Shown piece by piece: positions 7,047-58,329 of a DNA stretch of 64,000 nt. Positions within the stretch are counted from its first letter, which is position 1. The number at the start of each line of letters is the position of its first letter. The translations under genes and the position numbers were made by a program. The notes under the pieces were generated by a model, which was not told the origin of the DNA, ran no database searches, and saw only the letters and a list, made by a program, of their open reading frames with translations. Source of the DNA: Obrimoposthia wandeli (lineage: Eukaryota); contig CDROCS010001843.1 of assembly GCA_977020255.1 (NCBI GenBank), forward strand, positions 124,001-188,000, given 5' to 3'.

Positions 7047-7392
7047 AGTAGGTGGATGTGTCCGGTCTAATCCACACCCCCTCCCCCCACTGTATTTTAA
7101 AACCGTGCATGTGTGTGGAGCGAAAATTCGTGTATGTGTGTAGGAAAAAAATTAAAAGAAGCAACGAATAGGAGGGGGGCTACCAGTGTCCATTAAAACC
7201 GTGCAGGTGTGTGGAGGGAAATTACGTGTATGTGTGTGGAGTGAAATTTCGTATATATGTGTCTCTCCATGTGTCCCCCACATTTTTTAAAAAAAATTAC
7301 TGTGAAATTTACCATGAAAGTGGTTAGAGAAGACCACAGGAATCCATATTGGACCCGGCGGCTTATCGCAGACGAGATTTCAAATAATATAT
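7047..7392 (+). repeat. family A terminal inverted repeat (about 345 bp) with internal AAAACCGTGCATGTGTGTGGAGTGAAATTTCG repeats
   Basis: Matches 46829-47190 directly, and 51400-51552 and 57740-57819 in reverse complement. Confidence 0.88.
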
Positions 7393-7530
7393 GACTACTA
7401 TTTTTAAGAAAGATTAATAAATTACTAAATGTTAAATATTTAGGTCAGATTTATAAGAGAAAAAAATAGATCTATATAATTTAGAGGAGAAAAACAAAAT
7501 ACGAGTAAAAATTATTTTTCAAAACATTTA

Positions 7531-8055
7531 TTAAACATAAAACAACATATTGGTTTCACTCAAAGTCCAGAGAGGCTGCATTTTCCCGTCACCAGCAAAA
7601 TATCCATTGAGACGTATTGAGATATTCCATAGTTCTTCATCTAGAATTGGAGCAATCAAATATCCTAGATCATCATTAAAATCCAGACTTGGATCAGTTT
7701 CAAGCTGGAAACAATTTCCTTCATATACATAATCAGGAATGTAAAATCCCAAAATATTTTTCAATTGATCAATATCAGATGTTGTTAGATAATAGCTGAA
7801 CTTTCTTCTTTCAATCGTCACAGGATTTGCTAAAGCAATCAGTTGAGCCTTCTTCAAGAATCTGACTTTGTATTTGAAATATTGTTTCACTTCTTCATAC
7901 ATATCCTTATCCAATTCTTCAAACATTTCCGAATCTTCGTCACCGCTTAATATCCGTTGGCAGATAATTGTCTTTGATATGAATGCATTTACTGTGATTT
8001 GTCCTCCAATGGCGCATTCTTTTATACTAATTTCTAACAAAGACATGAATCTCAT
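7531..8055 (-). CDS. Polinton A accessory protein of unknown function
   Basis: 174-aa ORF inside A1; homologous frameshifted copy at 51646-52318. Confidence 0.7.
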   Translation of the reverse strand: MRFMSLLEISIKECAIGGQITVNAFISKTIICQRILSGDEDSEMFEELDKDMYEEVKQYFKYKVRFLKKAQLIALANPVTIERRKFSYYLTTSDIDQLKNILGFYIPDYVYEGNCFQLETDPSLDFNDDLGYLIAPILDEELWNISIRLNGYFAGDGKMQPLWTLSETNMLFYV

Positions 8056-8270
8056 TGGTTAATATAACTAAAACATTGAATTTGATTGGACTACATCCAT
8101 ATTAAAAATCAAATTTGATTGGACTAAATCCATATTAAAAATCAAATTTGATTGGAAGAAATATATCATCCAATTATAATAGGTTTGCAAGATAATAACA
8201 AGACACGTGCAATAAAAAAGCAGGTTCAGACATATATAAAGAAGAATTTACAGAATACAATTTTAGTCTA
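8056..8270. promoter_or_regulatory. divergent promoter with tandem CCAAT boxes at 33-bp spacing and a TATA-like box
   Basis: AATTTGATTGGACTA(C/A)ATCCATATTAAAAATCA repeat gives three ATTGG boxes; CATATATAAAG at about 8230; lies between divergent ATGs at 8055 and 8271. Confidence 0.6.
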
Positions 8271-8772
8271 ATGAAAAACGTAGATATAAATTATAAAGGT
8301 AGAACAGTAGATGATGTTTCGTACTTAACATTCAATGAATGGAAGCCGAAACAATATGTGGAAAAGTTTGACAATTTCACAGTTGTTATTTTTTCCTACA
8401 GGTACCTTTTTTATTTTATTTTCATATTGAATTATATTAGGAAATTGTCGTGTTATGGGATGCAAAATACCAATGCTTGGGTTCAATTTACCATTTGGAA
8501 TTCGAATCACTGCAATACAATCAATCATGATTTCGGCTAATCTTGTGAAACAGATAAATATTTTTAAAACTGCAGAGAAAAAGAAAGAAGAATGCATGTT
8601 TGAACCAGAAATTTTCCCGGCTCTCAGTTATTTGAAGTTTAAACCGCTATGTGTAAATATATTTTCCAGTGGTAAAATTATGATATTGGGATTGAAAAAT
8701 TTTGATTATACAGACATTGTTGATTTGATTTTAGAAAATATATCTTATTACATCTTGTTATCTTTTCTATAA
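8271..8772 (+). CDS. TBP-like (TATA-binding protein fold) gene with a 39-nt intron (8402-8440); +1 frameshift before the intron in this copy
   Basis: Spliced and corrected product has FTVVIFPTGNCRVMGCK and MFEPEIFPALSYLKFKPLCVNIFSSGKIMILGLK, matching the TBP repeat motifs TALIFSSGKMVCTGAK and YEPELFPGLIYRM..IFVSGKVVLTGAK. Confidence 0.8.
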
Positions 8773-8791
8773 ACAAACCCGTTTAAACTTA

Positions 8792-9043
8792 TTGTTTCAA
8801 ATGAAAAATACTATAAATAGAGACAATGAAGTGGATCGTCTTTTCGACGAAATATTTTCTGGAAAAATTAGTGGTAAACAAATTGTATCAGGATTTAAAA
8901 ATAATGAGATAACAAGAGATAACATTGAATTTAGAAATCGTACACAAATAAATAAAATTATAGCCAAATATTCATTAATTAATTTTTGTATTTCATCTAC
9001 AGTAGCTCTAACATTGCACATTTCAATAAGGAAACTTCTATGA
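8792..9043 (+). CDS. small Polinton A protein with C-terminal hydrophobic segment
   Basis: ORF conserved in copy A2 (52935-53216); ends YSLINFCISSTVALTLHISIRKLL. Confidence 0.55.
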   Translation: MFQMKNTINRDNEVDRLFDEIFSGKISGKQIVSGFKNNEITRDNIEFRNRTQINKIIAKYSLINFCISSTVALTLHISIRKLL

Positions 9044-9080
9044 TAATATAAACAATATTAAAAATGAAAGAGTATATGCA

Positions 9081-9569
9081 ATGGAGCTAAATAATAATGC
9101 TGTATTTCAAATAGTTGGTCCCAGTGGAAGTGGAAAGACACATTTCGTATGTAAATTGTTGCAAAACGAATATCTTTTCAAATCTAGTTTCAAAAATATT
9201 TATTGGCATCGTGGTGGAGGAGGGGAAAGCAGATTAATCAAAACAGAAGTTTGCAAGTTGAAGGGAATACAATTTATTGAAGGATTTGATGCAAATTGGT
9301 GTGAAAGATTGAAAAAAGAAGATGTAATAATAATTGATGATTTGTATCAGGAAGCTAACAAGGAATCGGACTTTAATAATTTATTTACGAAGATTGCAAG
9401 ACATCGTGAAGTAACAGTTATATTTATCACTCAAAATCTTTTTCACCAAGGAAGTCACCATAGAACAAGAAACCTTAATGTACATTACTTATTTTTTATT
9501 TAAAAATCCTAGAGATCAAACAGTTGTAGATTTCGTGGCCAGACAGGCGTTTCCCAAAAATAAGAACTT
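9081..9569 (+). pseudogene. Polinton packaging ATPase (A32/FtsK-like), frameshifted and C-terminally deleted
   Basis: Walker A GPSGSGKT, Walker B IIIDD, IFITQNLF..RT..LN motif; breaks at the deletion junction near 9569. Confidence 0.9.
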
Positions 9570-10264
9570 GGATCTGATGTAAAAGCTCTTAAATTTGGTT
9601 TTGACAATGGACATGTAGTAGGTATGATATATTCTCATCTAAATCGTTTAAAAATGTTCCTGATAAAGTAACAAGAGTGTTTTTATTTGAAACGAAACCA
9701 AAGTATGTAGTGGAACTGAAAACGTTTTCAAAAGATTATAAATTAGATAGTGAAGTGAATTTCTGTAAATTAATACAGAAGGAATGTAGTGAATATTTTG
9801 ATAAATGTGTAACATTAAAAAATGGTAAAATAACGTTTACAGTAAAGAGCAATATAATACGAGTTTTATTTGATGATAAACTCGCTAAAAACCTTGGTTT
9901 AAACAGTAATACCTTTGAAACCCATACAATAAAAACCATAAAAGCTAAAAATAAGGCAAAACTTTTAAATGCTGTTAATCATTTATATATTTATACTAAT
10001 TTAATAGAACCAACGCTTGTAGGAGGACAGCGAGTTCCACTTTTGAGAACAATATGGATATCTAAAAATGAAACTAGAGATGGGGACGCTGTCGGTATGT
10101 GTATAGATCAACCAATGTATCTTCCAGTTTCTCTCTTTTCTATAAACAATATTGAAGTAAATATTAGAGATGATTCCGGACAACTAATAGATTTCACGTA
10201 CCTGGCCAAGTCAAGTTTAACAATACATTTAAGAAAACAAAATGGCGAATCCAGCAATAATTGA
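9570..10264 (+). pseudogene. Polinton minor capsid (penton-like, PX) protein, C-terminal part
   Basis: LYIYTNLIEPTLVGGQRVPLLRTI and YLPV...IEVNIRDDSGQLIDF motifs; N-terminus removed by deletion. Confidence 0.8.
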
Positions 10265-10616
10265 AGCTTATAGTCAAAGCCAACAAGGTGGAGAATTACC
10301 ATATTTTGTTGGTAAACAATATGGATCTGGCTGGCTTAGAACATTAGGTAGATTTGCCTTTCCTCTTTTAAAGAGACTCAGGCGATTTATATCAAAATTA
10401 GGAAAGGATTACCTTCATCTAAGTACAATAAACTAATACCAACTTTTAAGAAGCATGCGCTTGATGAACTTGATAATGTTTTACCTGAAGTTGCTAATTT
10501 GATTAGAAAACGTAAATCAAATAAAAGCCAAGGAGGTAGTGGATTTAAAAGTAAAGAGAAGCAAAAAATCAATATAAACAAACGTAAGAATGTTGAAGGA
10601 ACAATATTTGCAAAAT
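10242..10616 (+). pseudogene. conserved small basic Polinton structural protein (QxGG / QYGSG motifs), frameshifted
   Basis: SQQGGELPYFVGKQYGSGWLRTLGRFAFPLLK in the canonical position between the minor and major capsid genes. Confidence 0.65.
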
Positions 10617-11840
10617 GAGTTGCGCCAAAACTGAATTGTGTATTTTTGATAAACCGCTTCCACAAGTAGTTGTAGATAATGCTTCCTTTGAAGAAATATT
10701 TCTAGTTAACTCAGTTTCAGGAACCACTTTAACCAATTTAGAATTTAATATTAATGGTTCCAATAGCGAGTATTTAAATTTGAATGATACTTTGCTTTAT
10801 GTTCAAATAAAAGTATTAAATCGGGATGGTACTAATTTAGATGAAAATGCCGATGTAACACCTGTAAATTATCTCTTTAATTCTTTATTTAATGATGCCA
10901 TTGTTACTCTTAATAATGTCAAAATTGAAGGTGGAAATTCTTCCTATGCTCATAAAGCTTTGATTGAAAGTCTTTTGAATTATAGTACTGATACTCAAAA
11001 TACTAATTTGGCGACCATTGGTTATGATAAAACGGTTGCAACTCGCAAAGAATGGATTGCAGGTTCTAAAGCTTACGAAATGTGTGGGTCTTTGAGATTG
11101 AATTTCTTTGAACAACCGAAATATTTAATTCCCTGTGTTAATGTACATCTTCGTTTGAAATGTAATAAATGGAATTTTTCTTTGATAAGCACGGACGTTT
11201 TAAAACCTAGACTTGATATTTTGGATGCAAAATTGTATGTTCAAAGAGTTAAAACCGAGCAATCAGTTTTAATGGCACATAATATAGGAATGGAAAAAAA
11301 CAATGCTTGTTATCCTATTAGAGAAACTAAACTTATATCTTATTCTTTAGGTACGGGTACACAAGCTTTTAATAAGGATCAAATTTTTGGTGATGTAAGA
11401 TTACCGAAATTCATTTTAATTTCTTTTCAAAAAACTGCAAAGTTTCTAGGAAATTATACGACAGATGCAACTCATTTTGACAATCTTAATGTAGGTTCAG
11501 TGACACTTTCAAGAAATACTGATTATCGTGAAACATATAAAACAGATTTCGAAGGTAACGCTTATGCTTTGGCTTATACCCAATCTATTATTCGGAATTT
11601 GGGTCAACTAGATAAAAATATAAACAATGGTATTTCTTTCACTGAGTTTAAAAGTAGCTGCCTATTCTTCACATTCGTTTTGGCACCAGACTTTGATATA
11701 AACCAATGCCAACTAAGGATGGAAATTTACGACTAGAAATTAAGTTCAATGCAGCTTTAACACATCCTACTACGGTGTTTATTTACGGAGTATTTGATTC
11801 GGAAATACAAATCAATAAAAACAGAACTGTCATATTATAG
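10615..11840 (+). CDS. Polinton major capsid protein (double jelly-roll, PY), frameshift near 11715
   Basis: CAKTELCIF..P.Q..., LEFNINGSNSEYLNLNDTLLYVQIKV N-terminus; shifted C-terminus GNLRLEIKF..LTHPTTVFIYGVFDSEIQINKNRTVIL*. Confidence 0.88.
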
Positions 11841-11841
11841 A

Positions 11842-12230
11842 ATGGAGTAAGACATATTTTAAATTTATATTTATTAATTTTTATTTAGTTCAAAACAAGT
11901 AAAAGAATCAGCAGAGAAGGTCCTGGGTGATAAATTCAATGGAGTTTATCCTATAGATATGATTCCATTTTTTCAATCTGGAGGTTACATTATCAATACT
12001 CATACTTCGAATTTACCAGGAGAACATTGGATAGCTATTTATGTTAGAGAGTGGACAATACATGTATTTGATCCACTTGCAAGGTATTATTCACACAAAC
12101 TTGTTTCAACTATTCAAAAATGACGAAGAAGAGTATTTTACAACAAGATACAATATCAGGATCCTGCGACGAGAAACTGTGGACATTTATGTATTTTATG
12201 GTTATCGTTGCAAAACAATAAGTGTGTTAT
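11842..12230 (+). pseudogene. adenain-type cysteine protease with a 42-nt intron (11847-11888), stop and frameshift
   Basis: ATGGA|GTAAGA...TTTAG|TTCA gives MDSKQVKESAEKVLGDKFNGVYPID; GEHW, FDPL, and Q..NCGHLC in a shifted frame. Confidence 0.85.
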
Positions 12231-12471
12231 AAAAATAAAAATTTTAAATGTTTTATTTTGAATTATTATTTAAATCTCTAAAAATATAAGGGTAAAATAA
12301 TAAAAGACATAAGACAAATTTTTTTAATACATTTATTAATCACAACATCACAATGAGATATGTCAGCAAAGATAAGGTCCATCCTAAAAAATGTATTGAA
12401 ATAACAAATAAGTTAGAGTCTAGGTGCCATAGGGATCTAAAATTTTAAAAAACTAAACTAAAAAAATCAAA

Positions 12472-12672
12472 GTGGTTGGTGGTTGGTGGTTGGTGGTTGG
12501 TGGTTGGTGGTTGGTGGTTGGTGGTTGGTGGTTGGTGGTTGGTGGTTGGTGGTTGGTGGTTGGTGGTTGGTGGTTGGTGGTTGGTGGTTGGTGGTTGGTG
12601 GTTGGTGGTTGGTGGTTGGTGGTTGGTGGTTGGTGGTTGGTGGTTGGTGGTTGGTGGTTGGTGGTTGGTGGT
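12472..12672. repeat. (GGTTGGT)n heptamer tandem array
   Basis: About 28 near-perfect 7-bp units visible directly. Confidence 0.97.
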
Positions 12673-12742
12673 TGTTTGATGTTGTTGTTGGTTGTTGTTT
12701 TTGTTTGTTTGTTTGTTTTTTTGTATTTTTTAAGGGCCTTTT

Positions 12743-15590
12743 TTATTTTACGTAGGTCCAGGTCTCAATCTTCTCCAGCTCCTCGGCTGACAACTTATCC
12801 AGGATCCCAGTTGTATGACTCGAGAATTTAGCCCACGAGGCCGCTGTATGTTCGATGGTTTTCAGGGTTAGTCGGATCTTGATATCCTTGATATCCTTTG
12901 CTTTAAAACCAGCATTTGCAAAGATCCGGTTATTGATTTCAGGCCAGAAGCCGAGGGTCCCGATCCTTAGCGCGTAGAGTTGCACGAGTTTTTCTAGGTG
13001 GCGGGTCTTTAGCATTTCAACGAGCTCCGCGTATTTGGACATAGTTTCAGTGAGCCTCAGATCAAATGACATGTCAGAGTCAAACGGGATCTTGATCTCT
13101 ATCAGCATCACCTTATAGTCAGTCTCGATCGTTATGTCTGGTCATGGTCTGCAGCTGTTTCCGTTATCGTCTACACATAAGTGGGTCAGCTCTTGAGTTA
13201 CCTGTCCTGGATATTTTAGTTCCAAGACCCTTGCAGTTTCCCGGCAGATCATGTCGTGTCTTTGAATTCGTAGTTTTGCTATGAGCTTACAACCAACGAT
13301 TGCATGGCTCATCGACTCTCGCTCCTGGCATCCCTTCCTGCATGGGGCGATCATATCAGTCCTGGGGCCTCGTACCTTCATGCGCCCGCACCTTGCGCGG
13401 TGGATGAAGAACCACCCTCGGTACGTCAGACGGCCCTTCATGATGGCCTGGTTAATGTATGTGTCTGATGTGGCGTTCTTATATATTGGACTCGCTAGCT
13501 TGTCTTCGAGAACCTTGTGACTCTGGCTGAGTTGCACAATGTTATGCATCGCCTTACTTGTGGTCTTGTAGGTCTTGAACTGCATGAGAAAACTGCCTCC
13601 ATGGTCGCTGGTTATGAAAAGATTGAGTGCTTGGTCCTTCTCAATCAGTTCTAGTTTGATATTTAGCTCATTCTGGAATTTCTTGGCCGCGTGGAACAGC
13701 CGCGTCCAAAGTCCCGTATCTTTCATGTTAGTGGCTAGGGTCCCTTCATTAAACCCCTGAACTGCTTCGGAGAAGGTCATTGGCGGATTAGGAAACTTCA
13801 ATTGTTCGGTGAGCTCACGCCTGAATAGGTTCTTTAGGTCCCTGTCGCGTGCATTTGCCATCTTTATCGTCTGGATGATGGACTGGATGTTATATTCGTC
13901 CTCAATCCTTGTCAGCCCAAGACCTCCACGGTCCTTGTTCCCATAGATAACTCCGATAGGGCTGTTGGCTAAGTCTAATCCCGCGATTGGTTTTATGACT
14001 TTCCTTAGGAGTCCTTCGAAGCCCCTTTCGTCTGTTCGGTTGCAGGATAAGCGGGAGTGTACCAGGTTTCCCTGTCTGAATACAAATATCAGCTTTGAGT
14101 GAATGAAGGTATTGTATGCGTCAGTCTTTTGATACGGTCTTAGTTCGCTTTTTGCCACTGCCGTGGTCAGTCGAAGCACTTCAGCCAACAGCTCCTCGCA
14201 ATGTTGCTTGGCGTTTGCAGTCCTGTCGCTGCCAAGGTATCGATATGGCGTGTCCGCAGTTACCTCTGGTATTTTTCCCCCTCTCAACATGAGATTGTCA
14301 GCTAGTTTGTCTTTCCTGTAAGGTATTTGTAGGACACCACACTTGCTGGGCCGGAATGTCAGCTGTAGGGTACTCGCGGTCTTGTCAGCGGTATTGATCA
14401 GGGCCTGGAGTCCTTCTTTGGTGCTAGATATGAGTGCAAGGCCATCGGCGTATGCCAGGGTCCGGATTTCTTCACCTGTTTCAAATCTGTATCCTGAGCC
14501 ATGGCTTTGGTTTGTGGCCTCTATTACCGGATTGATGCTCATATTAAATAAGAGCATCGATAGTGGACACCCTTGTCGCACTCCTCGTTTCATTGGGATC
14601 CGGTTGATTTTTCTGTCACCGCAGACAATGTTGGTCATATTCTGCTTATATACATCTTCAAGCAGTCTGATAGCGGCTGGGGCCACGTTAATTTTTTCCA
14701 GCATTCCCCAAATGAAAGAGACTGGTACCGACCCAAAGGCATCGGCCAGATCTAGGAAGGCGATGTAGGCGCAGCCTTGGTCCCTCTTTCGCAATACTTC
14801 CGAGGTGATCAGGCTAATCACCGTGTTGTGCTCGAAGCACCCCTCGTAGGCACCAAGGGATTTTTGTCGTGGATCCAGTATTTTATTCTTCCAGGCCCAA
14901 TCACTCATCCGTCTTGTGATGATTGACGCAAATATCTTGTAAACGCATGACATGACTGCGATAGGTCGCCAAGCTGTGATGTCATCGTAGCGCTGTTTCC
15001 TAGGGATGAACTTGGTCTTGAAGGTTCGCCAAGAGTCGGGAGTCCGTTGTTCGTCAATGCATGCATTGTATAGGCTGGCCAGTTTGTTACCATTATCGAA
15101 GCTGTGTAACATGTCCTTATATGTTACTTGGTCCGGTCCTGGGGCACTACTAGGTGCTGCTCTCAGCGCTCGAGTCACCTCCTCTGGAGTGATGTGGCTG
15201 ATCTCGAAGGTCTCTGGTGTTTTTTGGAAAAGGTTATCGGGAACTGCATCCCAGTCAATTGGGGTTGGTTCAACGCTCTTGCTTGTGAAGAAACCCCGTA
15301 TATTGTCCTCGTTTGGGCATGCTGTTGTCTCGTCGATAGGGATCTCCGTGATTTGGTCAAATGCTGCTTTTTTTGAGAAGGCGTATAGCTTGTTAATTAC
15401 GATATTCTCCTTGTTCTTGCCGTGGTTCTTTGGCTTGAAACAAGGGGCTTGATCACAATCCAGTTTCCTCAGTAGGCAGGCTGTGGTCACAGCCTTTTCT
15501 ATTGCGTTCACGTCCTTTCTTTCCTGCCGGGGGTTATTGCTCAGCACAATGGCCAAGGGTTCAGATATATCACCTTTCAGATATAAAAAT
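12743..15590 (-). mobile_element. 5'-truncated RLE-type non-LTR retrotransposon (NeSL/R2 superfamily), RT plus zinc knuckle plus restriction-like endonuclease, inactivated
   Basis: RT motifs WRPIAVMS, AFLDLADAFGSV, GVRQGCPLSMLLFN, YADG; CRKGC..ESMSH..GC..RHD; in-frame TGA at 13142-13144 then PDITIE..MLIEIKIPFD..K.KY. Confidence 0.93.
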
Positions 15591-16826
15591 CCTTAGGCAT
15601 GCTATATAACGTATTGTCATCAGGATTCAGTGAACATAATGTCAGATGTTTGCTGTAAGAGAGCTCGGATCGGAACCCATGCAAACATCTATGACACCAC
15701 TTACACCTTATCCTAACCGGTAAGGCTCCATTATCTAAATTTAGAAGACGATCTAAATTGGGAATTGCAGCATAATGGAATTTTTTATTATGTTCGAGCA
15801 AAATTAAGTTGACCTGAGTCCCCTCATTTTTGCTCCTATAAATTACATCTACAAAAGGATTTTTAAAAGGGGTATATTTACTGACACGCTCTCTATGCTC
15901 AGTAATTACATCCCTTTTGAGGATGGCCAACACGCTATACAGAAAGCAAAGGCTATCACTGTTTTGTACGTTAACAATGGAACGTGAAAGTTGAAGAGAT
16001 CTAGGTGAAGGAATGTATGAACTCCCCGAAAGATATATCATGTCAGTGAACTTTGTTAGAACAAAGCTAACATCGTGAATTCTAACTAGAGTCCATCCAC
16101 TACTTAACTCGCTATAATTAGCAATTTTTTCATCCAGGTTTCTTCCAATTTTAGTTACAAAATTATCATAGAAAACAGTTGCTTTATGTGAAATTATCCA
16201 AGTTTTAGTTTCCTCATTGACATTTTTAAAATGCACTGTTGCGCAAAATTGAACCTTAGCCTGTCCTAATTTAGTCACTTCTGATTTTAAAAGATTTTCA
16301 ATATTTGAATCTACACCTACGTTTAATAAAATTTCATTTCCTAATGGCACCTTAACTATAACATATTTCTTATTTAGGTGATACTCTATAGTAGCACCGT
16401 TTTCTCTACGTTTTTTTGGGTGGGACCTTATTAAGAAATTGGTCTCGCCTCTTTCTTCCGTTTGTCGCTGACAAACCTCCCCCTAATTGAACGGGAAGAC
16501 AACTATTTATATTAGCAGTTGACACAAACGCAGCTGAGATTGAAGGTGCTGCTATTGGCGATGCTGTCGATGTTGAGGTAATCGCAGCTGGTGTAGACGA
16601 TGCTGCTGGAATAGATGCTGCCGCAGATGTAGAGGCTACATTTGAAGCTGACCTTGCCGATGAAGAAGCGGCTGTTGTAGAGGTTAGTGCTGCTGAAATA
16701 AATATAATAAAAAATAAATATATTTTTAAAAATTACCTCTAAGGCGTGCTAACATCGATGTAGGCACTCGAGATGGGGGAGGCATAGCTGTCCTATCGGA
16801 TGACGGCTGTATCATAGTACTTCCTG

Positions 16827-17492: not shown

Positions 17493-18305
17493 TATTTCAA
17501 ATAGTCGGGGATTTAAATGAAGAAAGTGTTTGCTTATATACTAAAATTTATGCACACATGCTCTTTTCCTATTGGATTAAAAAAATTGAAAAGGATTGTT
17601 TATCTGTTAAATGGTCGAAAAAAATATTTTTTTATTCCTCCAGTCAAAAGAATTAATTGTAATTGAATGAAAATTATGAATTAGAAGAATTGTTTATCTA
17701 CATGTCAAGTAATAATAAGAAAGACTTAAACATTTTTATATGCGCAATGGTCACCATGATTACGATATGGACAGCAAATATTTCGTGGAATTTTTAATAG
17801 ATGATCACGTGAAATATTTAAAGTATTCAACCTCAATTTGGGAAAATATTTTTTTAAAGTCATATACTTATTGCCATCCATTTCATCTAAAACATAAAAA
17901 ATTCTATTTTCTATATCAAAATTAAATTTGATTGTATCGAAAATACATGTTTCACAAAAAGCCTTATGTCCTTCTTTCCATTTTAATAAATGAATATAAT
18001 TAGTTAGATATAAATTAGTAATTTTTTTCTTATAATCTTAACTTTTAAACGGGATATATATTTGAAATATGAAATACAATGGATGAAAAACATCGCATAC
18101 ATCCATAATACATAACTCTTTTATAATATAATCACCATTTTTGTTAATGAAAGCCTCAAAATCTATGATATATTCCTGCATAATTATCTAAATTTGCAGC
18201 AAATCCCGTTGTTTATAACGAAGTACTTTCATGTTAAGATTGGTATATTTTGTCAATTCTCATATGTAATCAATAATCAATAAAGACAAAATAATAATCA
18301 AAATT

Positions 18306-20583: not shown

Positions 20584-21429
20584 TTTTTGTAGTTATTTTC
20601 GCGAGAATGGAGCCCGCCCTTAAGTACAAGTGAGTTAATATCTTGTAATATTCGATCATTTTTAACATTTGTATTTTAGTAGTTATTAGTTGAACTTGAA
20701 GTATTCTTTTTTTTTTAAATAAATTATTTATATTTTAAAAATATCAAATAGTACTTGTTAATATGAATTGCTTTGCATTTGAAACTATTTTCGTCATTGT
20801 TTTAATACATTAATTGTAAACAATAAAAAAAACGCGCAATTTTAAAATTTTAATGTAATAAATTTGTTATTTTTTCTAAAGTTACAGTTAGATTATAGAA
20901 TAATGCTATTAGGCTGACGGACATACATCAATGGATTCGATGAATAACTTGTGATAAGATGAATATTTATCAAATTATTAATTATTTTATAATTAACATT
21001 ATGTTTAAAATCAAATTTGTTTAATTAAATCAAAGAAATGATAAAAATTTAGCACAAATTTAAATTTAAAAAATATTTTTATTTTAGAAAATTACAAGTA
21101 CTTTTATTTTTTTACCAGAACCTATTAAAGTATGCATGACCTTAAGGGTGTCTTTGAACTCAATTTTCATAGGCAAATACAACCATGTAATAAAATTATC
21201 ATGTTTGTTCCAAATTTGACCCTTAACTTGTGAACGACCATAAAATTTTTACATGATTAAACTCGTATTATGTTGACGAATACAACCATGTACTTGAAAC
21301 TATGAAATTCTATTTTTTTAACCCTTCATCTATGGACAACCATACCTATATGGATGAATTCGTCTTCTAAAGATGATTCCAACCATGTCTTCAAACCTTG
21401 ATATTTTAAACTTGATTTTGTTTTTTAGC

Positions 21430-22220
21430 CCGACCCTTTGATTTATGGACGACCATACTTTAAGGCTGAATTCACCTTCGAAAGATGATTCCAACCATGT
21501 ACTAAAACCTTGATATTTAAAACTTGATTTTGTTTTTAGCCCGACCCTTTGATTTATGGACGTCCATGACCCTTTAGGTATGTTGGTCGACCATAGATGG
21601 TCATGACCATACCTTCAAACATTCAAGTCCAAACTGAGTCCGACCCTTTGATTTATGGACGACCACAACCCTTTAGGTATGTTGGTCGACCATAGATGGT
21701 CATGACCATACCTTCAAATCTTCAAGTCAAAACTGACCCCAACCCTTCGACCTATGGACGACCACAACCCTTTAGATGTGATGACCAACCATAGTTGACC
21801 TTAATTATACCTTCAAAGTTTCAAGTCAAAACTGACCTTGACCCTTTGACCTATGGACGACCACAACCCCTTGGGTATGTTGGCCGACCATAGTTGACCT
21901 TAATTATACCTTCAAACCTTCAAGTCAAAACTGAGCCCGACCCTTTCACCTATGGACGACCACAACCCCTTGGGTATGTTGGCCGATCATAGATGGTCAT
22001 GACCATACCTTCAAACCTTCAAGTCAAAACTGACCCCGACCCTTTGATTTATGGACGACCACAACCCCTTGGGTATGTTGGTCGACCATAGATGGTCATG
22101 ATCATACCTTCAAACCTTCAAGTCAAAACTGACCCCAACCCTTTGATTTATGGACGACCACAACTTCTTGGGTATGTTGGTCGACCATAGATGGTCACGA
22201 CCATACCTTCAAACCTTCAT
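21430..22220. repeat. subterminal tandem array, 99-bp unit (about 7 copies) preceded by related 111-bp units
   Basis: CCGACCCTTTGATTTATGGACGACC recurs at about 21430, 21541, 21640, 21739, 21838, 21937, 22036 and 22135. Confidence 0.92.
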
Positions 22221-22367
22221 AACCTTTCTGAGCCAGACCCTTATGGTGTGGCAAGACACCTCTATTGTGATGCAACATATACCCTTATTGTGTGACACCC
22301 TTTAACTTGGTGTGCGCACACAGGGGGGGACCCCCCCAGTGGTCTAGACTCCATCAAAGTACCTACT

Positions 22368-23614
22368 AAAGGGTTATAGCTTATGGTTCACACGCAATGT
22401 CAAAACATGAAATGGGGTATTTTATTACTCGAAAAGAATTACTGATAATATACTATTTTTGCAATCACTTTGAGCACTATTTATACGGAAAACAATTTGT
22501 ATTGAGAACAGACCATAGAGCAATAACTTTCATGACCAAAACAAAAAAACCGATAACACCTCAGTTTCAAACATGGATAAACTACCTCAGTAGCCTTGAC
22601 ATAGACCTTTTGTATCGGAAAGGTGAGCTACATACAAATGCAGATGCAATGTCAAGAAGTGAGTGTCAAACTTGTTTACAATGTCAAAGGATACACCTGG
22701 ATCCAAAGTTGGGAAGGCTAAAAACTAAGATTTCGTCTATCGTGAATAAGAATAATTGTTCAGTGTGGCAATCAAATAATGCAGAAATTGAGGAATTAAA
22801 GAAAAATGTAAAATATCAATATAAAAATGGAATAATCCACACGTGAGATGACAAAACGTGGATTCCAGAAGATATGCGAGATAAATTTATAATGAAAAAT
22901 CATGAAGATTTATGCCATGCTGGATTTAGAAAAATCCAAAAATACCTTGAGAATAATTTTGATATGAAAAATATTATGTCCAGAATTAAATACATTGTTC
23001 GGAGCTGTAAAGCATGTCAATTGAGAAAAACATTCACGGGAAGAACAAAAGAAGAGATAAAAAAACGTTATTAGTAAATAACAACAAATAAATAGCACTA
23101 TTAATTATTCAAGTCCATAAATACGAGTTGTGCGATTTAGTGCTAGTAAAGAGAGAATTGAATAATAAAGCAGAAGATAGGTATGAAGGTCCAGTGAAAG
23201 TAATAAAGAATATTCACGAAAGAAGTTATGGGCTGAAATTTGAGAATGGACGTAAGTTGGTAAGAAATGTAGAGTGGCTAAAGCCTTTTAAACAAGGGGG
23301 GATGTGAGGTTGAATATATTGCTTTGTTTGATATGTTATACGAGTATGTTTGTATGCCTGTAAATTATGTATGTATGTCTGTTATTTATATTTGTATTTC
23401 TTATGCTCACTCGAGAATGCTGCTACTCATATAATACTTTATAATCAAGGAATATTCTAGAAACAAAATGGACGTGTTTGTTTTTGTTTTAATATTCTGG
23501 TTTTTGAATATAATTTTGAATTTATGTCTTTTGACGTGATCACTCGTTCCGACAGTAATATAAACCCGTTAGCTGGTTTTATCCTAACTGTATATTTAAT
23601 TCAACGATACTACA
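22368..23614 (+). mobile_element. Ty3/Gypsy LTR retrotransposon 3' fragment (RNase H, integrase remnants, PPT, 3' LTR)
   Basis: IAYGSH..SKHE.Y..RKELL, FVLRTDHRA, YRKG..NADAMSR; H..CHAG...C.ACQ; RYEGP; PPT AAACAAGGGGGGA then TG at 23303; LTR end near TACTACA at 23614 is tentative. Confidence 0.85.
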
Positions 23615-46828: not shown

Positions 46829-49800
46829 AGTAGGTGGATATGTCCGGTCTAATCCACACCCATCTCCCCACTGTCCTTTAAAACCGTGCATGTGTGTGGA
46901 GTGAAATTTCGTGTATGTGTGTAGGAAAAAAATTAAAAGAAGTTACGAATAGGGGAGGGGGTACCGCTGTCCTTTAAAACCGTGCATGTGTGTGGAGTGA
47001 AATTTCGTGTATCTGTGTGGAGTGAAATTTTGTGTATGTGTGTCTCCAAATGGGGAAGGGGGGAGAGGTTCCCCCCACATTTTTAAAAAAAATTTTACTT
47101 TAAAATTTATCTCGAAAGTGGTTAGAGAAGACAGCGGGAATCCATATTGGACTCGAGGGCTCATCGCAGACGAGATTTCAAATAATATATTACTTTGTAT
47201 TTTCTGACGATTCTTATGTGCCAGCGCGTCAATAAAGTTTTCATGGTTTCTTATATGGTAGATGCACTAATTGGATTTCTCTTCAACATATTTAAACTAT
47301 TCCTCCGTGTAATAAAGATATAATTTGAAGAGAGTATATAATGATCAATAATGGGGAGTTTATTACGGACAATTATACGGATAATTAGAGAGATTACTAT
47401 GATCAATTAGTCAATTTACGATCAAGAGTATATTATTAATGTTAATATGCATCTTTAACTAAGAATTTTATTAAATTTCAAAATGATTCATTAAATCTAA
47501 AATGTTATCTACTTTCTTTTAAAAAAGTTTTGATTTGTAAAAGAATCTGTAAAAGTATTATTACTAGAAAATGATTAGTTTACATTTCTATTTTTTGTTT
47601 CAAATAATATTGTTTGAAGATTAGCTTATTTAAGGAAATTAATCTATGTAATTAATTAAATTATCACTAGTAAACATCGGATATCAATACCATATTGGAA
47701 CATTTTGTTTAGAAATTATTACATCAGGACTAGAAATGGATTAAATTATATTATCTCTTTCGATTCATTTAAACCTAAAATTATTATTTTTCAAGTATCA
47801 TTTATTGATATAATTTATTCAATAATGTTTAGAGTATGTATTTATCTCAGTCATAATTTATTCATATTACTATATTCTCAAAAAATAATTTTTCATTGAT
47901 CGATATATCAAACAAGAAAATTCTTACAAAACTCTACAAGCTTATTGATTCATTGATGTTATCAATATTATGGAAACTTATTTTCAAAAATCAACAACCA
48001 GTCGATTTATTACTTCAAATAAATCGGTCTAGTAAAGAAATTATACATAAAAGGTTCTATAAGAGAAATTAACAAGATGCATGAGATTTGTTACATTTAG
48101 ATGAGATATGACATGGGTGTTTATAAGGTTTAAGAATAAAAAATAATGAATAGAGTTTTAGAAGAGAAACTCATGATTTGTTCAAAAGGTTCTCTAGAAG
48201 AGTAATTAATACATAGAAGATTAAAGATAATAAAATAAGTAGCGGTTCAGAGGAGAAATTAACGATACGAGGTATCAAAAGAAAAAATATAGCCTAGATT
48301 GGATTATGAAGTGAAATTGATGTGATTTATTTAAGAGATTTAGGAATGGAATTTAGGAAGTTTATTACATAGAAAAGGAAATTTACGAGGTATTTAGAAG
48401 GTTATAGAAGAAATATTAATGCATAGAATGGTTATAAAAGACAAATTGAAAAAGTGTTCAAGAGGTTTCAGAAGATATATTATATATTTGAAGGGTTTAG
48501 AAAAGATTTAGGAGGAATGTTTAGAGGTATCAGAAAATATAGCCTTAAAATGCGTTTAGAGAAGTATTTAAAAGGAGTATTTAGGAAGTTTCAGAAAAAA
48601 GAAATTAAAATTGGTTCATAGGGGAAATTAAAGGGTTCCAAAGAGAATTTAACCGAGGAGTTCAGAAGAGAAAATATAACCTTACAGGAGATAAAAGGAG
48701 GATTTAACGGATATATCAAGAGGTTTCAGAAGAGGAAATATAACTTAAATTGGTTCAGAGGAGAATTTATATGGGGAGGTTTCAGAAGAAATTAAAGGAA
48801 TTTAGAGGGAGATTTAACAGGGAGTTCAAGAGGTTTCAGAAGAAGAAATTAGATGAATTTAGAGGGAAATTTAACGGGGAGTTCAGGAGATTTCAGAAGA
48901 AATTAGATGAATTTAGAGGGAAATTTAACGATGATGTTTAGATGGTTCAGATTAAAGCTTTGAAGGGTTTAGAAAATATTTAGCAGGGATGTTTAGGAGG
49001 TTTTGGTAAATATAGCCTAGATAGCTAGATTGAATAAAAATAAAAGCGATGTATATAAGGTTAGTAGGATTCAAAAGAAAAAAATATAGGATATATTTTA
49101 CTTTGAAAGGAAATTTAATGTGAGTTAGAAGATATTTTGGTGGTTTAGAAGGGAAATAAGACTAATGTTCTAAAACTGTAGTGAAATCGTATTTTATCAA
49201 ATTCCTGTCATTTAAGATTATGATATAAGCGATCATATTGAATTTCAGCTTTATACTGCTTCAAAGCGAGTTATACCAAAAATTAATCATAAGTATTTTA
49301 CTCATATTTCGGTAATAACGAAGACAATTTTTACAAAAGCAGAGATATTATTCAAACTTTTACCATCTTCTTGTATATTTTTTGCATATATTTTGGAAAA
49401 TTATGTTAGAATTAGAATTAGAGTATTAGAAGTTAGAGGTTAGATATTGAGTAATAACGATTAGTGGGCATATTCCCAATTATTGATTTTATAGTTGAAA
49501 ATAATCAATGATGTTGTAAATAGCTGCTTATAAGTCAATAGGTATTAAGGAAAACTTAAAAAAACAACTTCTGAGTATTGATAAAGTCATCATATTTTTA
49601 TAAAAAATCAGGTAAAATCTTTATGATTACTATTAATAGTTTTGGTTCATATAAATGGATTCTATCTTCATTAGACATTAAAAATACTTTTAATCAATTA
49701 ATATTAAGACATTGAACGAAAATTAACGATTTCATTAATACATAGTAAATAAGTTATTTTCAAAGATAGTTTTATCGAAGTCATCAATATTATCGTTCCA

Positions 49801-51397: not shown

Positions 51398-51552
51398 TTT
51401 CTAGGGGGTACCCCCCCTTGTCCTTTAAAACCGTGCATGTGTGTGGAGTGAAATTTCACTCCACACACCTACACGAAATTTCACTCCACACACATGCACG
51501 GTTTTAAAGGACAAGAGAGGGGTGTGGATTAGACCGGACACATCCACCTACT
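51398..51552 (-). repeat. family A terminus (reverse orientation) containing a 40-bp perfect inverted repeat
   Basis: Ends ...CCGGACACATCCACCTACT at 51552; inverted arms 51417-51456 and 51476-51515. Confidence 0.85.
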
Positions 51553-51645
51553 ATTACTACATGTTAAATATTTAGGTCAGATTTATAAGAGAAAAATTAG
51601 ATAACTATATAATTTAGAGGAGTATAAACAAAATACGAGTCAAAA

Positions 51646-52500: not shown

Positions 52501-52915
52501 ATGAAAAACGTAGATATAAATTATAAAGGTAGAACAGAAGATGATGTTTCGTACTTACCATTCAATGAATGGAAGCCGAGACAATATGTGGAAAAGTTTG
52601 ACAATTTCACAGTTGTTATTTTTCCTACAGGTCAGTATTTTATTTTATTTTCATATTGAATTATTTTAGGAAATTGTCGTGTTATGAGATGCAAAATACC
52701 AATGCTTGGGTTCAATTTACCATTTGGAATTCGAATCACTGCAATACAATCAATCACGATTTCGGATAATCTTGGGAAACTGATAAATAATTTTAAAACT
52801 GCTGAGAAAATGAAAGAAGAATGCATGTTTGAACCAGAAAAATTTTGATTATCCAGACATTGTTGATTTGATTTTAGAAAATATATCTTATTACATCTTG
52901 TTATCTTTTCTATAA
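52501..52915 (+). pseudogene. second copy of the TBP-like gene (intron 52631-52669; second repeat core deleted)
   Basis: In-frame splice CCT ACA G|GA AAT; deletion after GAACCAGAA with GAAA(A)ATTTT microhomology. Confidence 0.78.
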
Positions 52916-53253
52916 ACAAACCCGTTTAAACTTATTGTTTCAAATGAATAATACTATAAATAGAGACAATGAAGTGGATCGTCTTGTCGACGAAATATTT
53001 TCTGGAAAAATTAGGGGTAAAGAAATTTTATCAGAATTAAAAAATAATGATATAACAAGAGATAACATTGAAATATTGGTAAGATCATACGTTATTCGAG
53101 AATTTAGAAATCGTTCACAAATAAATAAAATTATAGCCAAATATTCAATTATTAATTTTTGTATTTCATCTACAATAGCTCTAACATTGTACATTTCAAT
53201 AAGGAAACTTCTATGATAATATAAACAATATTAAAAATGAAAGAGTATATGCA

Positions 53254-53898
53254 ATGTAGCTAAATAATAATGCTGTATTTTAAATAGTTGGCCCTAGTGG
53301 AAGTTGAAAGACACATTTCGTCTGTAAATTGTTGCAAAATGAATCTATTTTCAAATCTAGTTTCAAAAATATTTATTGGCATCATGGTGGAGGAGGGGAA
53401 AGCGGGTTAACCAAAACAGAAGTTTGCAAGTTGAAGGGTATACAATTTATTGAAGGATTTGATGCAAATTGGTGTGAAAGATTGAAAAAAGAAGATGTAA
53501 TAATAATTGATGATTTGTATGAGGCTAACAAGGAATCGGACTTTAATAATTTATTTACAAAGATTGCAAGACATCGTGAAGTAACAGTTATATTTATCAC
53601 TCAAAATCTTTTTCACCAAGGAGGTCACCATAGAACAAGAAATCTTAATGTACATTACTTAGTTTTATTTAAAAATCCTAGAGATCAAACAGTTGTTAAT
53701 TTCGTGGCCAGACAGGCGTTTCCCCAAAATAAGAACTTTCTAGTTGATTCATTCCACGATGCTGCTAAACAAGCACATATGTATATATTTATTGACTTTA
53801 CACAAGCTTGCCCAGATGATTTACGTGTTTTAACATACATATTTAATTCTAAGGGAGTAACTGTTTATAAACAAATAGAGAACAATTATAAAAAATAA
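53254..53898 (+). pseudogene. Polinton packaging ATPase, full length but with three early nonsense codons
   Basis: Same motifs as 9081; TAG, TAA and TGA (the last in Walker A) relative to copy A1. Confidence 0.9.
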
Positions 53899-54077
53899 AT
53901 TCGCAATGCCTTTTACAAAGTTGATAGTAAAACGTAAAGTAAAATCTAAGAAATAAAAAAAATTGAATCATTAAGAAAAAAGAAGTAAAAAATTTTAAAA
54001 AATATGTAGTTAGAAATAAAAAAAAACTTAAATGGCTTCGAATATAAACAATATTCAAATTGAACCTTTTTATTAAA

Positions 54078-54407
54078 ATGAAGAAATTACAAAGAAGCAT
54101 ACCTTATTTTAAAGCTTTAGTCAAAGCCTCTTCTCATAAGAGAATGCTTATTATTAAAGCATTTCCATCCTTTGTTGTAGATGATTTATTGGAAGTTTTG
54201 TATAATATAGTTTTGGGTCGAGTAAAAGTTGGAAAACGGAAAAATATATTAAAGAAATATAGAAAAACTCTTCTAGATATTGCTAATGTAAAAAGTAAAA
54301 AAAGGAAACGAAATATTATTACTAAACAGAATGGTGGTTTCATAGAAGCTGTTATTTCAGTTGATGCTTCAATTATCAGTAGTATTATAGCTGCGACACG
54401 TTCATAA
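54078..54407 (+). CDS. conserved small basic Polinton protein with QNGGF motif
   Basis: DDLLEVLYNIVLG..LKKYRKTL..KQNGGF; canonical position between ATPase and integrase. Confidence 0.7.
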   Translation: MKKLQRSIPYFKALVKASSHKRMLIIKAFPSFVVDDLLEVLYNIVLGRVKVGKRKNILKKYRKTLLDIANVKSKKRKRNIITKQNGGFIEAVISVDASIISSIIAATRS

Positions 54408-54493
54408 ACAATTATTTATAAAATCAGCTAAAGATATGGGTGCTAGCCCTTCTTTACTTAAACGTAAATTGTCTTTCTATTCAAATTGTTGTA

Positions 54494-55519
54494 ATGGAGA
54501 AGATATGGTTCAATCCAAAAGATCCAATTGGCTACACAGGAGTTTCAAAATTAGCAAAAAGAACAAAACAAAATTACAAGAAAACGCAGAAATGGCTGAG
54601 CGACCAGTTAGCCTACAGTCTAAACAAGCCGACGAGAAGAAGGTTTCCAACTAGAGCTTACAAAACCAGCAGTCCTAATAATTTATGGCAAATGGATTTG
54701 ATGGAGATGATCCCATATTCTTCCATTAATAAGGGATATCGATATATTTTAACATGTATTGATGTATTTAGCAGGTTTGCTCGTGCAATTCCCGTTAAAG
54801 CAAAGTCTTCAATAGCTATCCTTGAAGCCATTAAAGAAATATTAAAAGAGGACATTCCACAAAATGTGCATACTGATTTAGGAAAAGAATTTTATAATAA
54901 GCAAGTTCAATCTTTATTTAAACAAAATAATATAAATCACTACTCTGTGTTTTCACAGTACAAAGCAGCAGTAGTAGAAAGATTTAATCGTACTTTAAGA
55001 GATCGAATAACAAAGCATTTCACAAAAGGAAATAAAAAATGGATCCAAGTTTTACCTCAAATAATACATGCATATAATCACTCTGAACATAGAGGTCTCA
55101 AGGGAATGAGACCTGTTGATGTTACTAATAAAAACTCTATGGACATTTGGATGAACATAAATAAAAAAGATAAAATTAAAAAAGCTAAATATAAGAAAAA
55201 CGAATATGTTCGAATTTCGAAAATTAGCTCTACTCCATTTATTAAAAACTTTGATCAGAATTGGAGCGATGAAATATTTTGTATAAGTAAAATTGATCAA
55301 AAGAGTAATCCAATAATGTATACTATTAAAGATGCTGACAATAATATCGTTCACGGTAAATTTTACGAGCAAGAACTACAAGTAATATCAAATAAACCTA
55401 GCGTTTTCTGTATTCAAAAAATATTAAAATCTAAGGGTACAGGTAAACATAAACAATACTTTGTTAAATGGCATAGTTATTCAGACCCAACTTGGATATC
55501 AGTATCTAATATAATATGA
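54494..55519 (+). CDS. Polinton retroviral-like (rve) integrase with C-terminal chromodomain-like region
   Basis: DDE triad WQMDL / VHTDLGKEF / VVERFNRTL; C-terminal KILKSKG..QYFVKW; ORF open. Confidence 0.93.
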   Translation: MEKIWFNPKDPIGYTGVSKLAKRTKQNYKKTQKWLSDQLAYSLNKPTRRRFPTRAYKTSSPNNLWQMDLMEMIPYSSINKGYRYILTCIDVFSRFARAIPVKAKSSIAILEAIKEILKEDIPQNVHTDLGKEFYNKQVQSLFKQNNINHYSVFSQYKAAVVERFNRTLRDRITKHFTKGNKKWIQVLPQIIHAYNHSEHRGLKGMRPVDVTNKNSMDIWMNINKKDKIKKAKYKKNEYVRISKISSTPFIKNFDQNWSDEIFCISKIDQKSNPIMYTIKDADNNIVHGKFYEQELQVISNKPSVFCIQKILKSKGTGKHKQYFVKWHSYSDPTWISVSNII

Positions 55520-56563
55520 ATTCTATGTATATGGTATGTATATGTCCGAAGACTCAACCAGATAATGACGCTAGTAGCTTTATTATCGATTGGGAAAATT
55601 CTATAAATCTCCAAGGAGAATGGGAAGCGGCTTTAACAGAATTTTCTTTTTATTATTCTCCAATTACTATCAAAAAAACTCACATATTTCGTTTACAAAA
55701 GAAGTTGATCATGAAAAAACAACTGAAGTTGTGATCGTGTTTGATAGTAAAGGACAATTCTATTACAATTGTATAGATAAAGAAGTGAAAGTAATATTTG
55801 AAAATAATAACATTCAGATTTAAAAATCGATTAAAATATCTTCAAGTTATTAAAATAAACTTTGAATCTAAAAAAGAAGCTCTTCAATTCAGTTTTGATA
55901 GTGAACAAACAGTAGCTCGTAATAAACGGGATATAGCCTCATCTAAATCGTTTAAAAATGTTCCTGATACAGTAACAAAAGTGTTTTTAGTTGAAACGAG
56001 ACCAAAGTATGTAGTGGAACTGAAAACGTTTTCAAAAGATTATAAAATAGATAGTGAAGTGAATTTCTGTAAATTAATACAGAAGGAATGTAGTGAATAT
56101 TTGGATAAATGTGTAATATTAAATGGTAAATTAACGTTTACGGTAAAGAGCAACATAAAACGGGTTTTATTTGATGATAAACTAACTAAAAACCTTGATT
56201 TAAATAGATATACCTTTGAAACCCATACAATAAAAACCATAAAAGCTAAAAATAAGGCAAAACCTTTAAATGTCATTAATCATTTATATATTATACTAAT
56301 TTAATAGAATCAACGCTTGTAGGAGGACAATGAGTTCCACTTTTGAGAACAATATGGATTTCTCAAAATGAAACTGAAGATTGGACGTTGTCGGTATGTG
56401 TATAGATCAACCAATGTATCTTCCAGTTGCTCTCTTTTCTATAAACAAAATTGAAGTAAATATTAGAGATAATCCCGGACAACTAATAGATTTCACGTAC
56501 GGGGCCAAGACAAGTTTAACAATACATTTAAGAAAACAAAATGGTGAATCCAGCGATAATTGA
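55516..56563 (+). pseudogene. Polinton minor capsid (PX), frameshifted
   Basis: N-terminal ..LQGEWEAALTEF motif and C-terminal motifs as in copy A1, split over three frames. Confidence 0.8.
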
Positions 56564-56915
56564 GGCTTATAGTCAAAGCCAGCAAGGTGGAGAATTACCA
56601 TATTTTGTTGGTAAACAATATGGATCTGGCTGGCTTAGAACATTAGGTAGATTTGTTTTTTTTACTTTTAAGGAGACTCGGGCGGTTTATATCAAAATTA
56701 GGAAAGGATTACCTTTCATCTAATGACAATAAACTAATACCAACTTTTAAGAAGCATGCGCTTGATGAACTTAATAATGTTTTACCTGAAGTTGCTAATT
56801 TGATTAGAAAAGGTAAATCAAATAAAAGCTAAGGAGGAAGTGGATTTAAACGTAAAAAGAAGCAAAGAATTAATATAAACAAACGTAAGAAAGTTGAAGG
56901 AACAATATTTGCAAA

Positions 56916-57650
56916 ATGAATTGCGCCAAAATTGAATTGTGTATTTTTGATAAACCACTTCCACAAGTAGTTGTAGATAATGCTTCCTTTGAAGAAATAT
57001 TTCTAGTTAACTCAGTTTCAGGAACCACTTTAACCGATTTAGAATTTAATATTAATGGATCCAATAGCGAGTATTTAGATTTGAATGATACTTTGCTTTA
57101 TGTTCAAATAAAAGTATTAAATCGGGATAGTACTAATTTAGAGAAAAATGCAGATGTAACACCTGTAAATTATATCTTTAATTCTTTATTTAGTGATGCC
57201 ATTGTTACTCTTAATAATGTCAAAATTGAAGGTGGAAATTCTTCATATGCTCATAAGGCTTTGATTGAAAGTCTTTTGAATTATAGTACTGATACTCAAA
57301 AAACTAATTTGGCAACCATTGGTTATGACGAAACGGTTGCAACTCGTAAAGAATGGATTGCGGGTTCTAAAGCTTACGAAATGTGTGGGTCTTTGAGATT
57401 GTATTTCTTTTGACAACCGAAATATTTAATTCCCGGTGTTAATGTACATCTTCGTTTGAAACGTAATAAATGGAATTTTTCTTTGATAAGCACAGACGTT
57501 CTAAACCTAGACTTGATATTTTGGATGCAAAATTGTATGTCCGAAGAGTTAAAACCGAGCAATCAGTTTTAATGGCTCATAATATAGGAATGGAAAAAAA
57601 CAATGCTTGTTATCCTATTAGAGAAACTAAACTTATATCCTATTCTTTAG
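56916..57650 (+). pseudogene. Polinton major capsid protein, truncated
   Basis: Near-identical to the first two-thirds of 10615-11840; homology stops at TATTCTTTAG (57650). Confidence 0.88.
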
Positions 57651-58329
57651 GCCTCTCAGGACCTTCCTCACGTTTTTGGGAGCACTTTGAGATTTTCAAT
57701 TTTAAAGGGGTTAATTAATTTTTTTGAGTGCTGGGTGGGGGGTAGAAAATTTCACTCCACACACATGCGCGGTTTTAAAGGACAGGGGGTGTGGATTAGA
57801 CCGGACACATCCACCTACTGCCCCTATATCCATTATTTCATTAATTCTCGATTTTCCATCCATTACAATGATGTAAGATTGTGGATTTTGATACTGTAAA
57901 CAGATTCTACATCTTTGGTTGTTGATTGAAAGTATTGGGAAAATGAAAATTGACTATTTTTAAATATATCTCAGACAACTAAAAAATAATATTATGAAAA
58001 GTAATACTACATAAGATAAACATGTTTGGTAACGTATCAGTTCGTATTTTCAAATAAAACATATTCGAGTTAAAACCTTTTTAAAATATTAAAAATAAAG
58101 TTTTATGAAAGTAAAAATGAAATAGCAAATGCAATGGAGTTTGAAATCTTAATTATTTGGGATTTACTGGATTTAGGAGACCATGTTGTAGTGATAATTA
58201 AAATGTATCTAGTTATGTAATCAGAAGCCGGAAATACCATACTGAGATAATTTGTTTAGAAAGTCATACATAAATGAATAAATCTTCTGTTTGTAAAATC
58301 TGACTCTTTGAATTAACTCTACGATGAAA

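Follow-up and report, generated by a model that had tools for sequence, protein, structure and literature searches.

Polintons of Obrimoposthia wandeli carry a gene for a miniature TATA-binding protein (mini-TBP) that serves, at a probability of roughly 70%, as the element's own late-promoter factor: it is predicted to bind a YATAAACR box that stands ahead of the packaging gene and the putative capsid genes, bringing in host TFIIB and RNA polymerase II (Pol II). A role in switching on late genes appears likely because the packaging gene and most putative capsid genes stand behind a common TATAAAC box, and it is from such patterns that we infer binding, recruitment and timing. Profile search, structural model and fold comparison confirm the product as a two-lobed TBP whose N-lobe lacks both helices, and the gene is a stable component of a wide Polinton clade under purifying selection.

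The window analyzed here, a stretch of 64,000 nucleotides, holds the gene in two Polinton copies, A1 and A2 (Table 1), and a third TBP fragment lies just past its end. A sequence-only reading of this DNA had proposed that removal of an intron and one extra T yields a protein with two TBP-like repeats; the gene, the quoted motifs, the intron and the frameshift in the T run all hold up, but repeat 1 is not a full one (no Pfam match in the profile search, both helices lost). Exon 1 measures 131 nt in the window copy versus 130 nt in 26 of 30 copies compared from the same genome. The natural unbroken open reading frame at 8431–8769 scores 42.8 bits on PF00352 (E 4.8e-11; curated cut-off 22.9 bits) and matches 35 solved TBP sequences at E<1e-5, archaeal as well as eukaryotic chains, which is far beyond chance. 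As the same reading had noted, copy A2 lacks the extra T and is in frame through exon 1, and an 86-nt deletion in its exon 2 takes out the repeat 2 core. There is no need to rebuild the gene from the two copies in the window, as that reading had done, because 16 of 30 copies fetched from the organism's own genome (G000, 1.35 Gb) have both exons unbroken and GT-AG intron ends. A 15.4-kb relative (G000:C628) is bounded by terminal inverted repeats (TIRs). At the DNA level a search of this genome gave 2,858 first-look candidates, and all 40 that were scored are 95–100% identical, one of them being the window copy.

Table 1. Features of the two Polinton copies in the window (positions count from its first letter)
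Feature	Position	Strand	Remarks
Left terminal inverted repeat, Polinton copy A1	7047–7141		starts AGTAG
Single-stranded-DNA-binding (SSB) gene remnant	7534–8058	-	T7 gp2.5/Enc34/ASFV CP312R fold; head-to-head with TBP gene; family alignment, model, Z 8.4/8.4/7.8/7.2; internal deletion in window copy
Canonical TATA box TATATAAAG of TBP gene	8233–8241	+	from sequence; CCAAT/ATTGG words further upstream
Mini-TBP exon 1	8271–8401	+	ATG at 8271; frameshifted in window copy in T run 8389–8394
Phase-1 GT-AG intron, 39 nt	8402–8440	+	splits Gly codon after strand S4 of N-lobe
Mini-TBP exon 2	8441–8772	+	N-lobe end, short linker, full C-lobe with FEPEIFP stirrup; PF00352 E 4.8e-11
TATAAACA box	8768–8775	+	overlaps TBP stop codon; 32 nt before next ATG (8801)
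TATAAACA box	9047–9054	+	33 nt before ATPase ATG (9081)
A32-like packaging ATPase	9081–9567	+	Pox_A32 E 9e-07; cut by ~2.1 kb deletion that also takes integrase
ATAAAC box	10574–10579	+	41 nt before putative major capsid ATG
Putative major capsid gene	10615–11831	+	named from size and position; 56% to metagenome homologue
Adenain-like maturation protease	11884–12222	+	homologues match Peptidase_C5
Non-LTR retrotransposon	12472–15588	-	RVT_1 E 3e-26; occupies place of most of polymerase gene
N-terminal remnant of protein-primed polymerase B	15589–16482	-	homologue matches PF03175 E 1e-18
Conserved ~150-aa ORF, no family found	17732–18216	-	own ATAAAC box at 18216–18211
Second mini-TBP copy (A2)	52501–52915	+	intron 52631–52669; 86-nt exon 2 deletion; ends in ATAAAC box at 52912
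Copy A2 downstream block	53221–57820	+	boxes 53221, 54044, 56875; ATPase, small ORF, rve integrase (E 8.5e-14), putative capsid fragments, right TIR 57739–57820

Four observations support the intron: its length varies between 35 and 40 nt across the 30 copies while exon lengths are mostly fixed; indels are in excess within it (19 events in 38 intron nt versus 14 in 462 exon nt, a contrast that T runs inflate); an intronless sister family in the same genome, whose protein P0001 is 51% identical to exon 2 of the mini-TBP, reads straight through the exon junction; and in two other families of this genome a GT-AG intron interrupts that very codon. From this sequence pattern we infer splicing. Four unlabelled runs over 7400–9600 cover genes and spacer alike, with no intron-skipping joint among the 15 listed of 440. 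Since most relatives are intronless, the intron is likely a later gain.

The elements share with Polintons/Mavericks (adintoviruses) their TIRs, a 6-bp target-site duplication (GGCATG in the 15.4-kb relative) and core genes confirmed by Pfam, namely a protein-primed polymerase (pPolB, PF03175), an rve integrase, an A32 ATPase and an adenain protease. Their gene order runs TIR, SSB, TBP, small ORF, ATPase, small ORF, integrase, putative minor and major capsid genes and protease, with pPolB on the opposite strand. The searches gave no match to double- or single-jelly-roll capsid proteins; conserved ORFs of fitting size and place are present, and the capsid labels are based on size and position. 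Copy A1 in the window is dead through the 2.1-kb deletion and the non-LTR insertion, and no right TIR of this copy was found within the window. The inserted element combines a reverse transcriptase with a downstream endonuclease-like ORF and adjoins a GGTGGTTGGT-type tandem repeat (~12470–12700), and a 99-nt tandem array followed by an LTR-retroelement RNase H fragment (21405–22332 and 22370–22846) takes up the place in which the Polinton should have its right end. Extra TIR copies at 46829–46922, 51414–51553 and 57739–57820, with a hairpin-like pair near 51411–51521, suggest nested insertions.

The neighbor of the TBP gene had been a candidate partner transcription factor and was dropped, its family model folding like T7 gp2.5, Enc34 SSB and ASFV CP312R (Z 7.2–8.4); PF00382 matches near polymerase fragments look like exons of host TFIIB rather than part of the element. 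Among metagenome elements, SSB genes (L068, L063, L064 and others) have an apparent short AT-rich GT-AG intron at the 5' end. Accessory genes of TBP-bearing elements include a BIR/IAP gene (L055:640–1452), an E2 ubiquitin-conjugating enzyme (L084:225–722) and a KilA-N gene (L108:7037–8002), and the polymerase at L068:9125–12568 bears an Endonuclease_7 (HNH-like) insert reminiscent of pPolB2, the polymerase with an HNH domain in Polintons of nematodes and oomycetes. In PMC8502044 (Starrett et al.) TBP is not among the accessory genes of sections 3.1–3.2 and the readable Fig. S2 labels, and its sole main-text mention there is in the legend to Fig. 5, which uses it as a label for MELD viruses whose PolB is adintovirus-like. 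Two such labels occur in the preprint 10.1101/697771, and another Polinton subgroup carries VLTF3 instead, according to the sections available from PMC11131425. Searched with TBP and TATA terms, the accessible portions of 10.1101/2023.08.22.554363, PMC11071308, PMC11131425, PMC12220804 and 10.64898/2026.06.19.733378 hold nothing relevant, and a literature search with incomplete coverage of subscription journals gave no account of a Polinton TBP family or a TATAAAC late box.

The TBP family reaches well beyond the window. In a PF00352 search of the O. wandeli genome (19,768 candidates, 150 scored) the best ten matches are host TBP/TRF-like genes, and 20 further scored matches that were read are all of the element type and fall into at least 4 families. 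Among the host genes, a TBP and a paralogue lie divergently adjacent on contig C238, C968 holds one that has an intron, and two divergent copies are intronless (L031–L040). A search with P0001 yielded 43 proteins among 50 candidates at 32–61% identity, and a family profile search 62 clusters at E<1e-30. Polinton core genes are also matched at 32 of 74 metagenome TBP loci, most of the others being short, and dN/dS is 0.04–0.33 in 10 of 12 pairs (the other two are saturated). In the Atlas, PF00352 clusters alone are named for TBP and nothing is named for SSB; IMG/VR returned one unrelated full-length viral TBP for the TBP alignment and 0, 1 and 0 loci for the ATPase and capsid queries, and the phage collection gave no match.

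These data bear on whether the gene is an ordinary host TBP paralogue, recently captured and passively carried, the case that had been named as refuting an element-encoded factor. Such a capture would fit with the spliceosomal intron that several families in the genome possess. Against it, identity to host TBP is 29% over 65 aa versus up to 61% to metagenome relatives, most relatives have no intron, and dN/dS is low. A branch with 100/99 support sets the family apart from all other rows in a 36-row tree, and the proposed phylogeny with host TBP rejects a common clade (AU p=0.008, with long branches and with host rows that are partial exons). A quick 111-row tree agrees; it omits the rows made of host exons, 13 partial rows and, of the short rows taken from the database, two thirds. 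With several families in one genome and metagenome loci next to Polinton genes, capture by a single lineage fails as an explanation, and we regard passive carriage of a host paralogue as hardly credible.

The TBP identity proposed from sequence is borne out by profile, model and fold. PF00352 is matched by 34 of 34 family members, and the predicted model of P0001 (pLDDT 94.4) aligns over all 144 residues with human TBP (Z 13.6, rmsd 2.4), the top Foldseek matches in the PDB all being TBP. This model has only strands in residues 1–75 and both helices in the C-lobe, so that the protein departs from the canonical layout, in which both repeats are complete and carry H1 as well as H2 helices; the N-lobe spans comprise 38 and 22 residues versus 47 and 34, the H2 span being the 22 versus 34.

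Residue changes were read from an alignment of 166 rows (84 short members, 52 long ones, 17 cellular or other, and 13 partial rows set aside), using yeast numbering with an offset that we take to be correct. The short members keep F116 (83 of 84), F190 (84), F207 (84), N69 (81) and P191 (77), and with E186 and E188 (82 of 84 each) their sequences retain the acidic C-terminal TFIIB stirrup. Replaced are V71N (79), V122R (83), T124M (84), N159S (79), V161T (68), I194R (75, with S rather than R in the window family), V203C (79) and L205N (84). The F99 column holds Phe in 1 of 84, which leaves three of the four intercalating phenylalanines, and N159, Ser in those 79 members, is one of the two central asparagines. 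The changed positions presumably include all three of the classic altered-specificity mutant TBPm3, I194, V203 and L205. Because many long members keep the N-lobe helices yet already share R122/M124/N205, the new DNA face likely arose before the helices were lost. Most of the replaced positions are TBP-DNA contacts, and the herpesvirus protein ORF24 also makes V122, T124, V161 and L205 polar (both as given in Table 1 of PMC12529657); the stirrup glutamates contact TFIIB, according to the relevant part of PMC10005294.

Set beside cellular TBP and TRF proteins of eukaryotes and archaea, the mini-TBP shares the two-lobed saddle, N69, F116, F190, P191, F207 and the YEPELFP stirrup, but it differs in the missing N-lobe H1 and H2, the loss of F99, eight changed DNA-facing or nearby positions and the lack of an N-terminal extension. 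By sequence and model it belongs to PF00352 but lacks the N-lobe helices and the full Phe/Asn set of a canonical cellular TBP. TBPs of nucleocytoviruses (Heterosigma akashiwo virus, mimivirids, ASFV B263R) have the same fold (Foldseek E 1e-8 to 1e-4) but are larger (about 190–500 aa) and 20% or less identical to it. These proteins work with a viral RNA polymerase, and no such polymerase was found in the TBP-bearing Polintons.

The closest functional analogy is to the vTBP of beta- and gammaherpesviruses, represented by KSHV ORF24. As described in the accessible parts of PMC12529657, this system likewise relies on a protein of viral TBP fold whose DNA face is more polar; the gene class of that protein has host-type promoters, and its late genes, with a minimal variant TATA box (TATTWAA), are transcribed by host Pol II. 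The same source gives ORF24 as a protein of 752 aa that binds Pol II itself, lacks the TFIIB glutamates, has all four phenylalanines and needs five partner proteins, in contrast to the about 145–153 aa, retained stirrup, three phenylalanines and TATAAAC box of the mini-TBP. No counterpart of the five partner factors was identified in the elements, and sequence kinship to ORF24 is not shown, the fold matches being weak (Foldseek E 3e-3 and worse). By analogy, the mini-TBP may work like a herpesvirus vTBP, and length, stirrup and box set it apart from membership in that group.

The box itself was recognized as a recurring YATAAACR upstream of homologous starts. Among 47 non-redundant elements (3 from the O. 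wandeli genome and 44 from metagenomes; L119, L123, L124 and two own-genome regions were left out), ATAAAC lies 20–55 nt before 72 of 271 starts versus 8.2 expected, the top value of all hexamers, although such counts overstate independence because the elements are related. ATAAAT precedes 28 starts, ATAAAA 17 and ATAAAG 7. Nearly all ATAAAC occurrences are on the sense strand (91, of which 49 sit at -40 to -31), with an antisense total of 4. Boxes precede 17/17 ATPase genes, 10/12 small PW-like ORFs, 6/9 putative major capsid genes and 6/8 of the 150-aa ORFs, four “late” classes that were chosen after the data had been seen. They are scarce before the TBP gene (1/38) and SSB (1/16), and a canonical TATA stands before 19/38 TBP genes. 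Integrase (2/9), protease (1/5), PZ-like (1/7) and minor capsid genes (5/11) are rarely boxed, with uncertain start choice, and would need read-through or other promoters. The earlier proposal that the elements' own TBP drives late capsid genes gains an independent line of support from the box before ATPase and capsid genes, with binding and timing still at the level of prediction; its other suggestion, competition with host TFIID, gives no account of the TATAAAC box. As candidate explanations of the motif, a poly(A) signal was rejected with A preceding in 5 of 84 cases, and a mere stop codon with 13 of 84; 28 of 84 boxes lie inside an upstream ORF.

A protein that binds the box could equally well hold its genes silent, as a dead complex on packaging and capsid genes while the element is integrated. 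Such a repressor would explain the box and its co-occurrence with TBP just as well, and the lost N-lobe surfaces could block a full initiation complex. However, the glutamates that contact TFIIB are kept, few boxed genes (10/46) have a canonical TATA that could be repressed, and the box sits at the usual TATA distance, so that we think repression improbable. Still more doubtful is a non-transcriptional role as a DNA-bending protein in replication or packaging, with the box unrelated: the TBP gene often adjoins SSB, but the box goes with gene starts and keeps to a single strand, and the TFIIB stirrup is conserved.

Comparison with other elements speaks to whether box and protein belong together. 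The genome also holds a Polinton (GC 27%) that is bounded by TIRs but belongs to a different family; a profile search finds no TBP in it, and a box precedes 0/13 of its starts. Two degraded relatives show the box before 1/9 and 0/16, this TBP-less control being one family. That Polinton (G000:C2184, 1279–16329; L222–L223) has TIRs of 406 bp, a polymerase ORF of 1498 aa and, ahead of the integrase, a PLA2-like ORF, and long A/T runs precede its starts. Seven elements whose full-length TBP lacks the residue signature have ATAAAC before 1/70 starts and TAAGA before 17/70 versus 5.3 expected, a weaker enrichment (p 1e-5, uncorrected over 1,024 pentamers) in a lineage that also differs in host and GC content. 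Metagenome Polintons of this kind (L125–L135) combine a full-length, differently altered TBP with a PC4 gene and have RTAAGA near gene starts, a motif resembling TAAG, the baculovirus late element. A distant ATPase query found TBP-bearing families only, with TBP within 1.5 kb in 29/30 and the box in 29/30 (near-copies).

The strongest of the competing readings is that of a decoy or dominant negative, in which the mini-TBP dampens host transcription by sequestering TFIIB or by sitting on host TATA boxes, and TATAAAC serves host TBP or a host paralogue as a weak TATA. The retention of the TFIIB stirrup despite the loss of the N-lobe helices, the presence of several TBP-like genes in the host, and TBP-DNA structures that contain a C(-25) TATA variant (PDB 1qn3, from its title) would all suit a decoy. 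That host TBP, or one of at least 3 further host TBP-like genes, might read the box counts against a late factor as well. However, a decoy accounts neither for the near-invariant new DNA-facing residues nor for a box that is missing from the TBP-less Polinton of the same host and changes with the type of TBP. We therefore consider it unlikely, if a shade more plausible than repression.

As a late-promoter factor, the mini-TBP would act in a simple sequence of steps. Host TFIID would transcribe the TBP gene early from its ordinary TATA/CCAAT promoter, and the viral TBP would then bind TATAAAC. The N-lobe of TBP reads the 3' half of the box, and its altered face (V71N, V122R, T124M, F99 lost) may read the C that replaces A/T at position 7, while the intact E186/E188 stirrup would recruit TFIIB. 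Helix H2 of TBP is the binding surface for Mot1/BTAF1, TAF1-TAND2 and Brf1; its loss would remove that surface and might allow the protein to escape host TBP control and to serve Pol II only.

More tentatively, and leaning slightly against a proposal this strong, we suggest that a single viral TBP of ~145 residues suffices, with no other viral factors, to redirect host TFIIB and Pol II to a private promoter and thus to form an autonomous early-to-late cascade. Lineages with co-evolved pairs of TBP and box (R122/M124/N205 with TATAAAC; full-length TBP with RTAAGA) would then form an orthogonal series that also shows stepwise erosion of the N-lobe. The family is so abundant in the O. wandeli genome that leaky expression could touch host promoters containing TATAAAC. 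A TBP with a matching 8-bp box offers a simple handle on the timing of capsid genes in animal Polintons and on the question of a genuine viral programme in these elements. The changed positions, including the TBPm3 trio, make these elements a natural experiment in TBP specificity and, if the late-promoter reading is true, this viral TBP system would be smaller than any described so far, a case of convergence on the late transcription of herpesviruses that likely acts via TFIIB.
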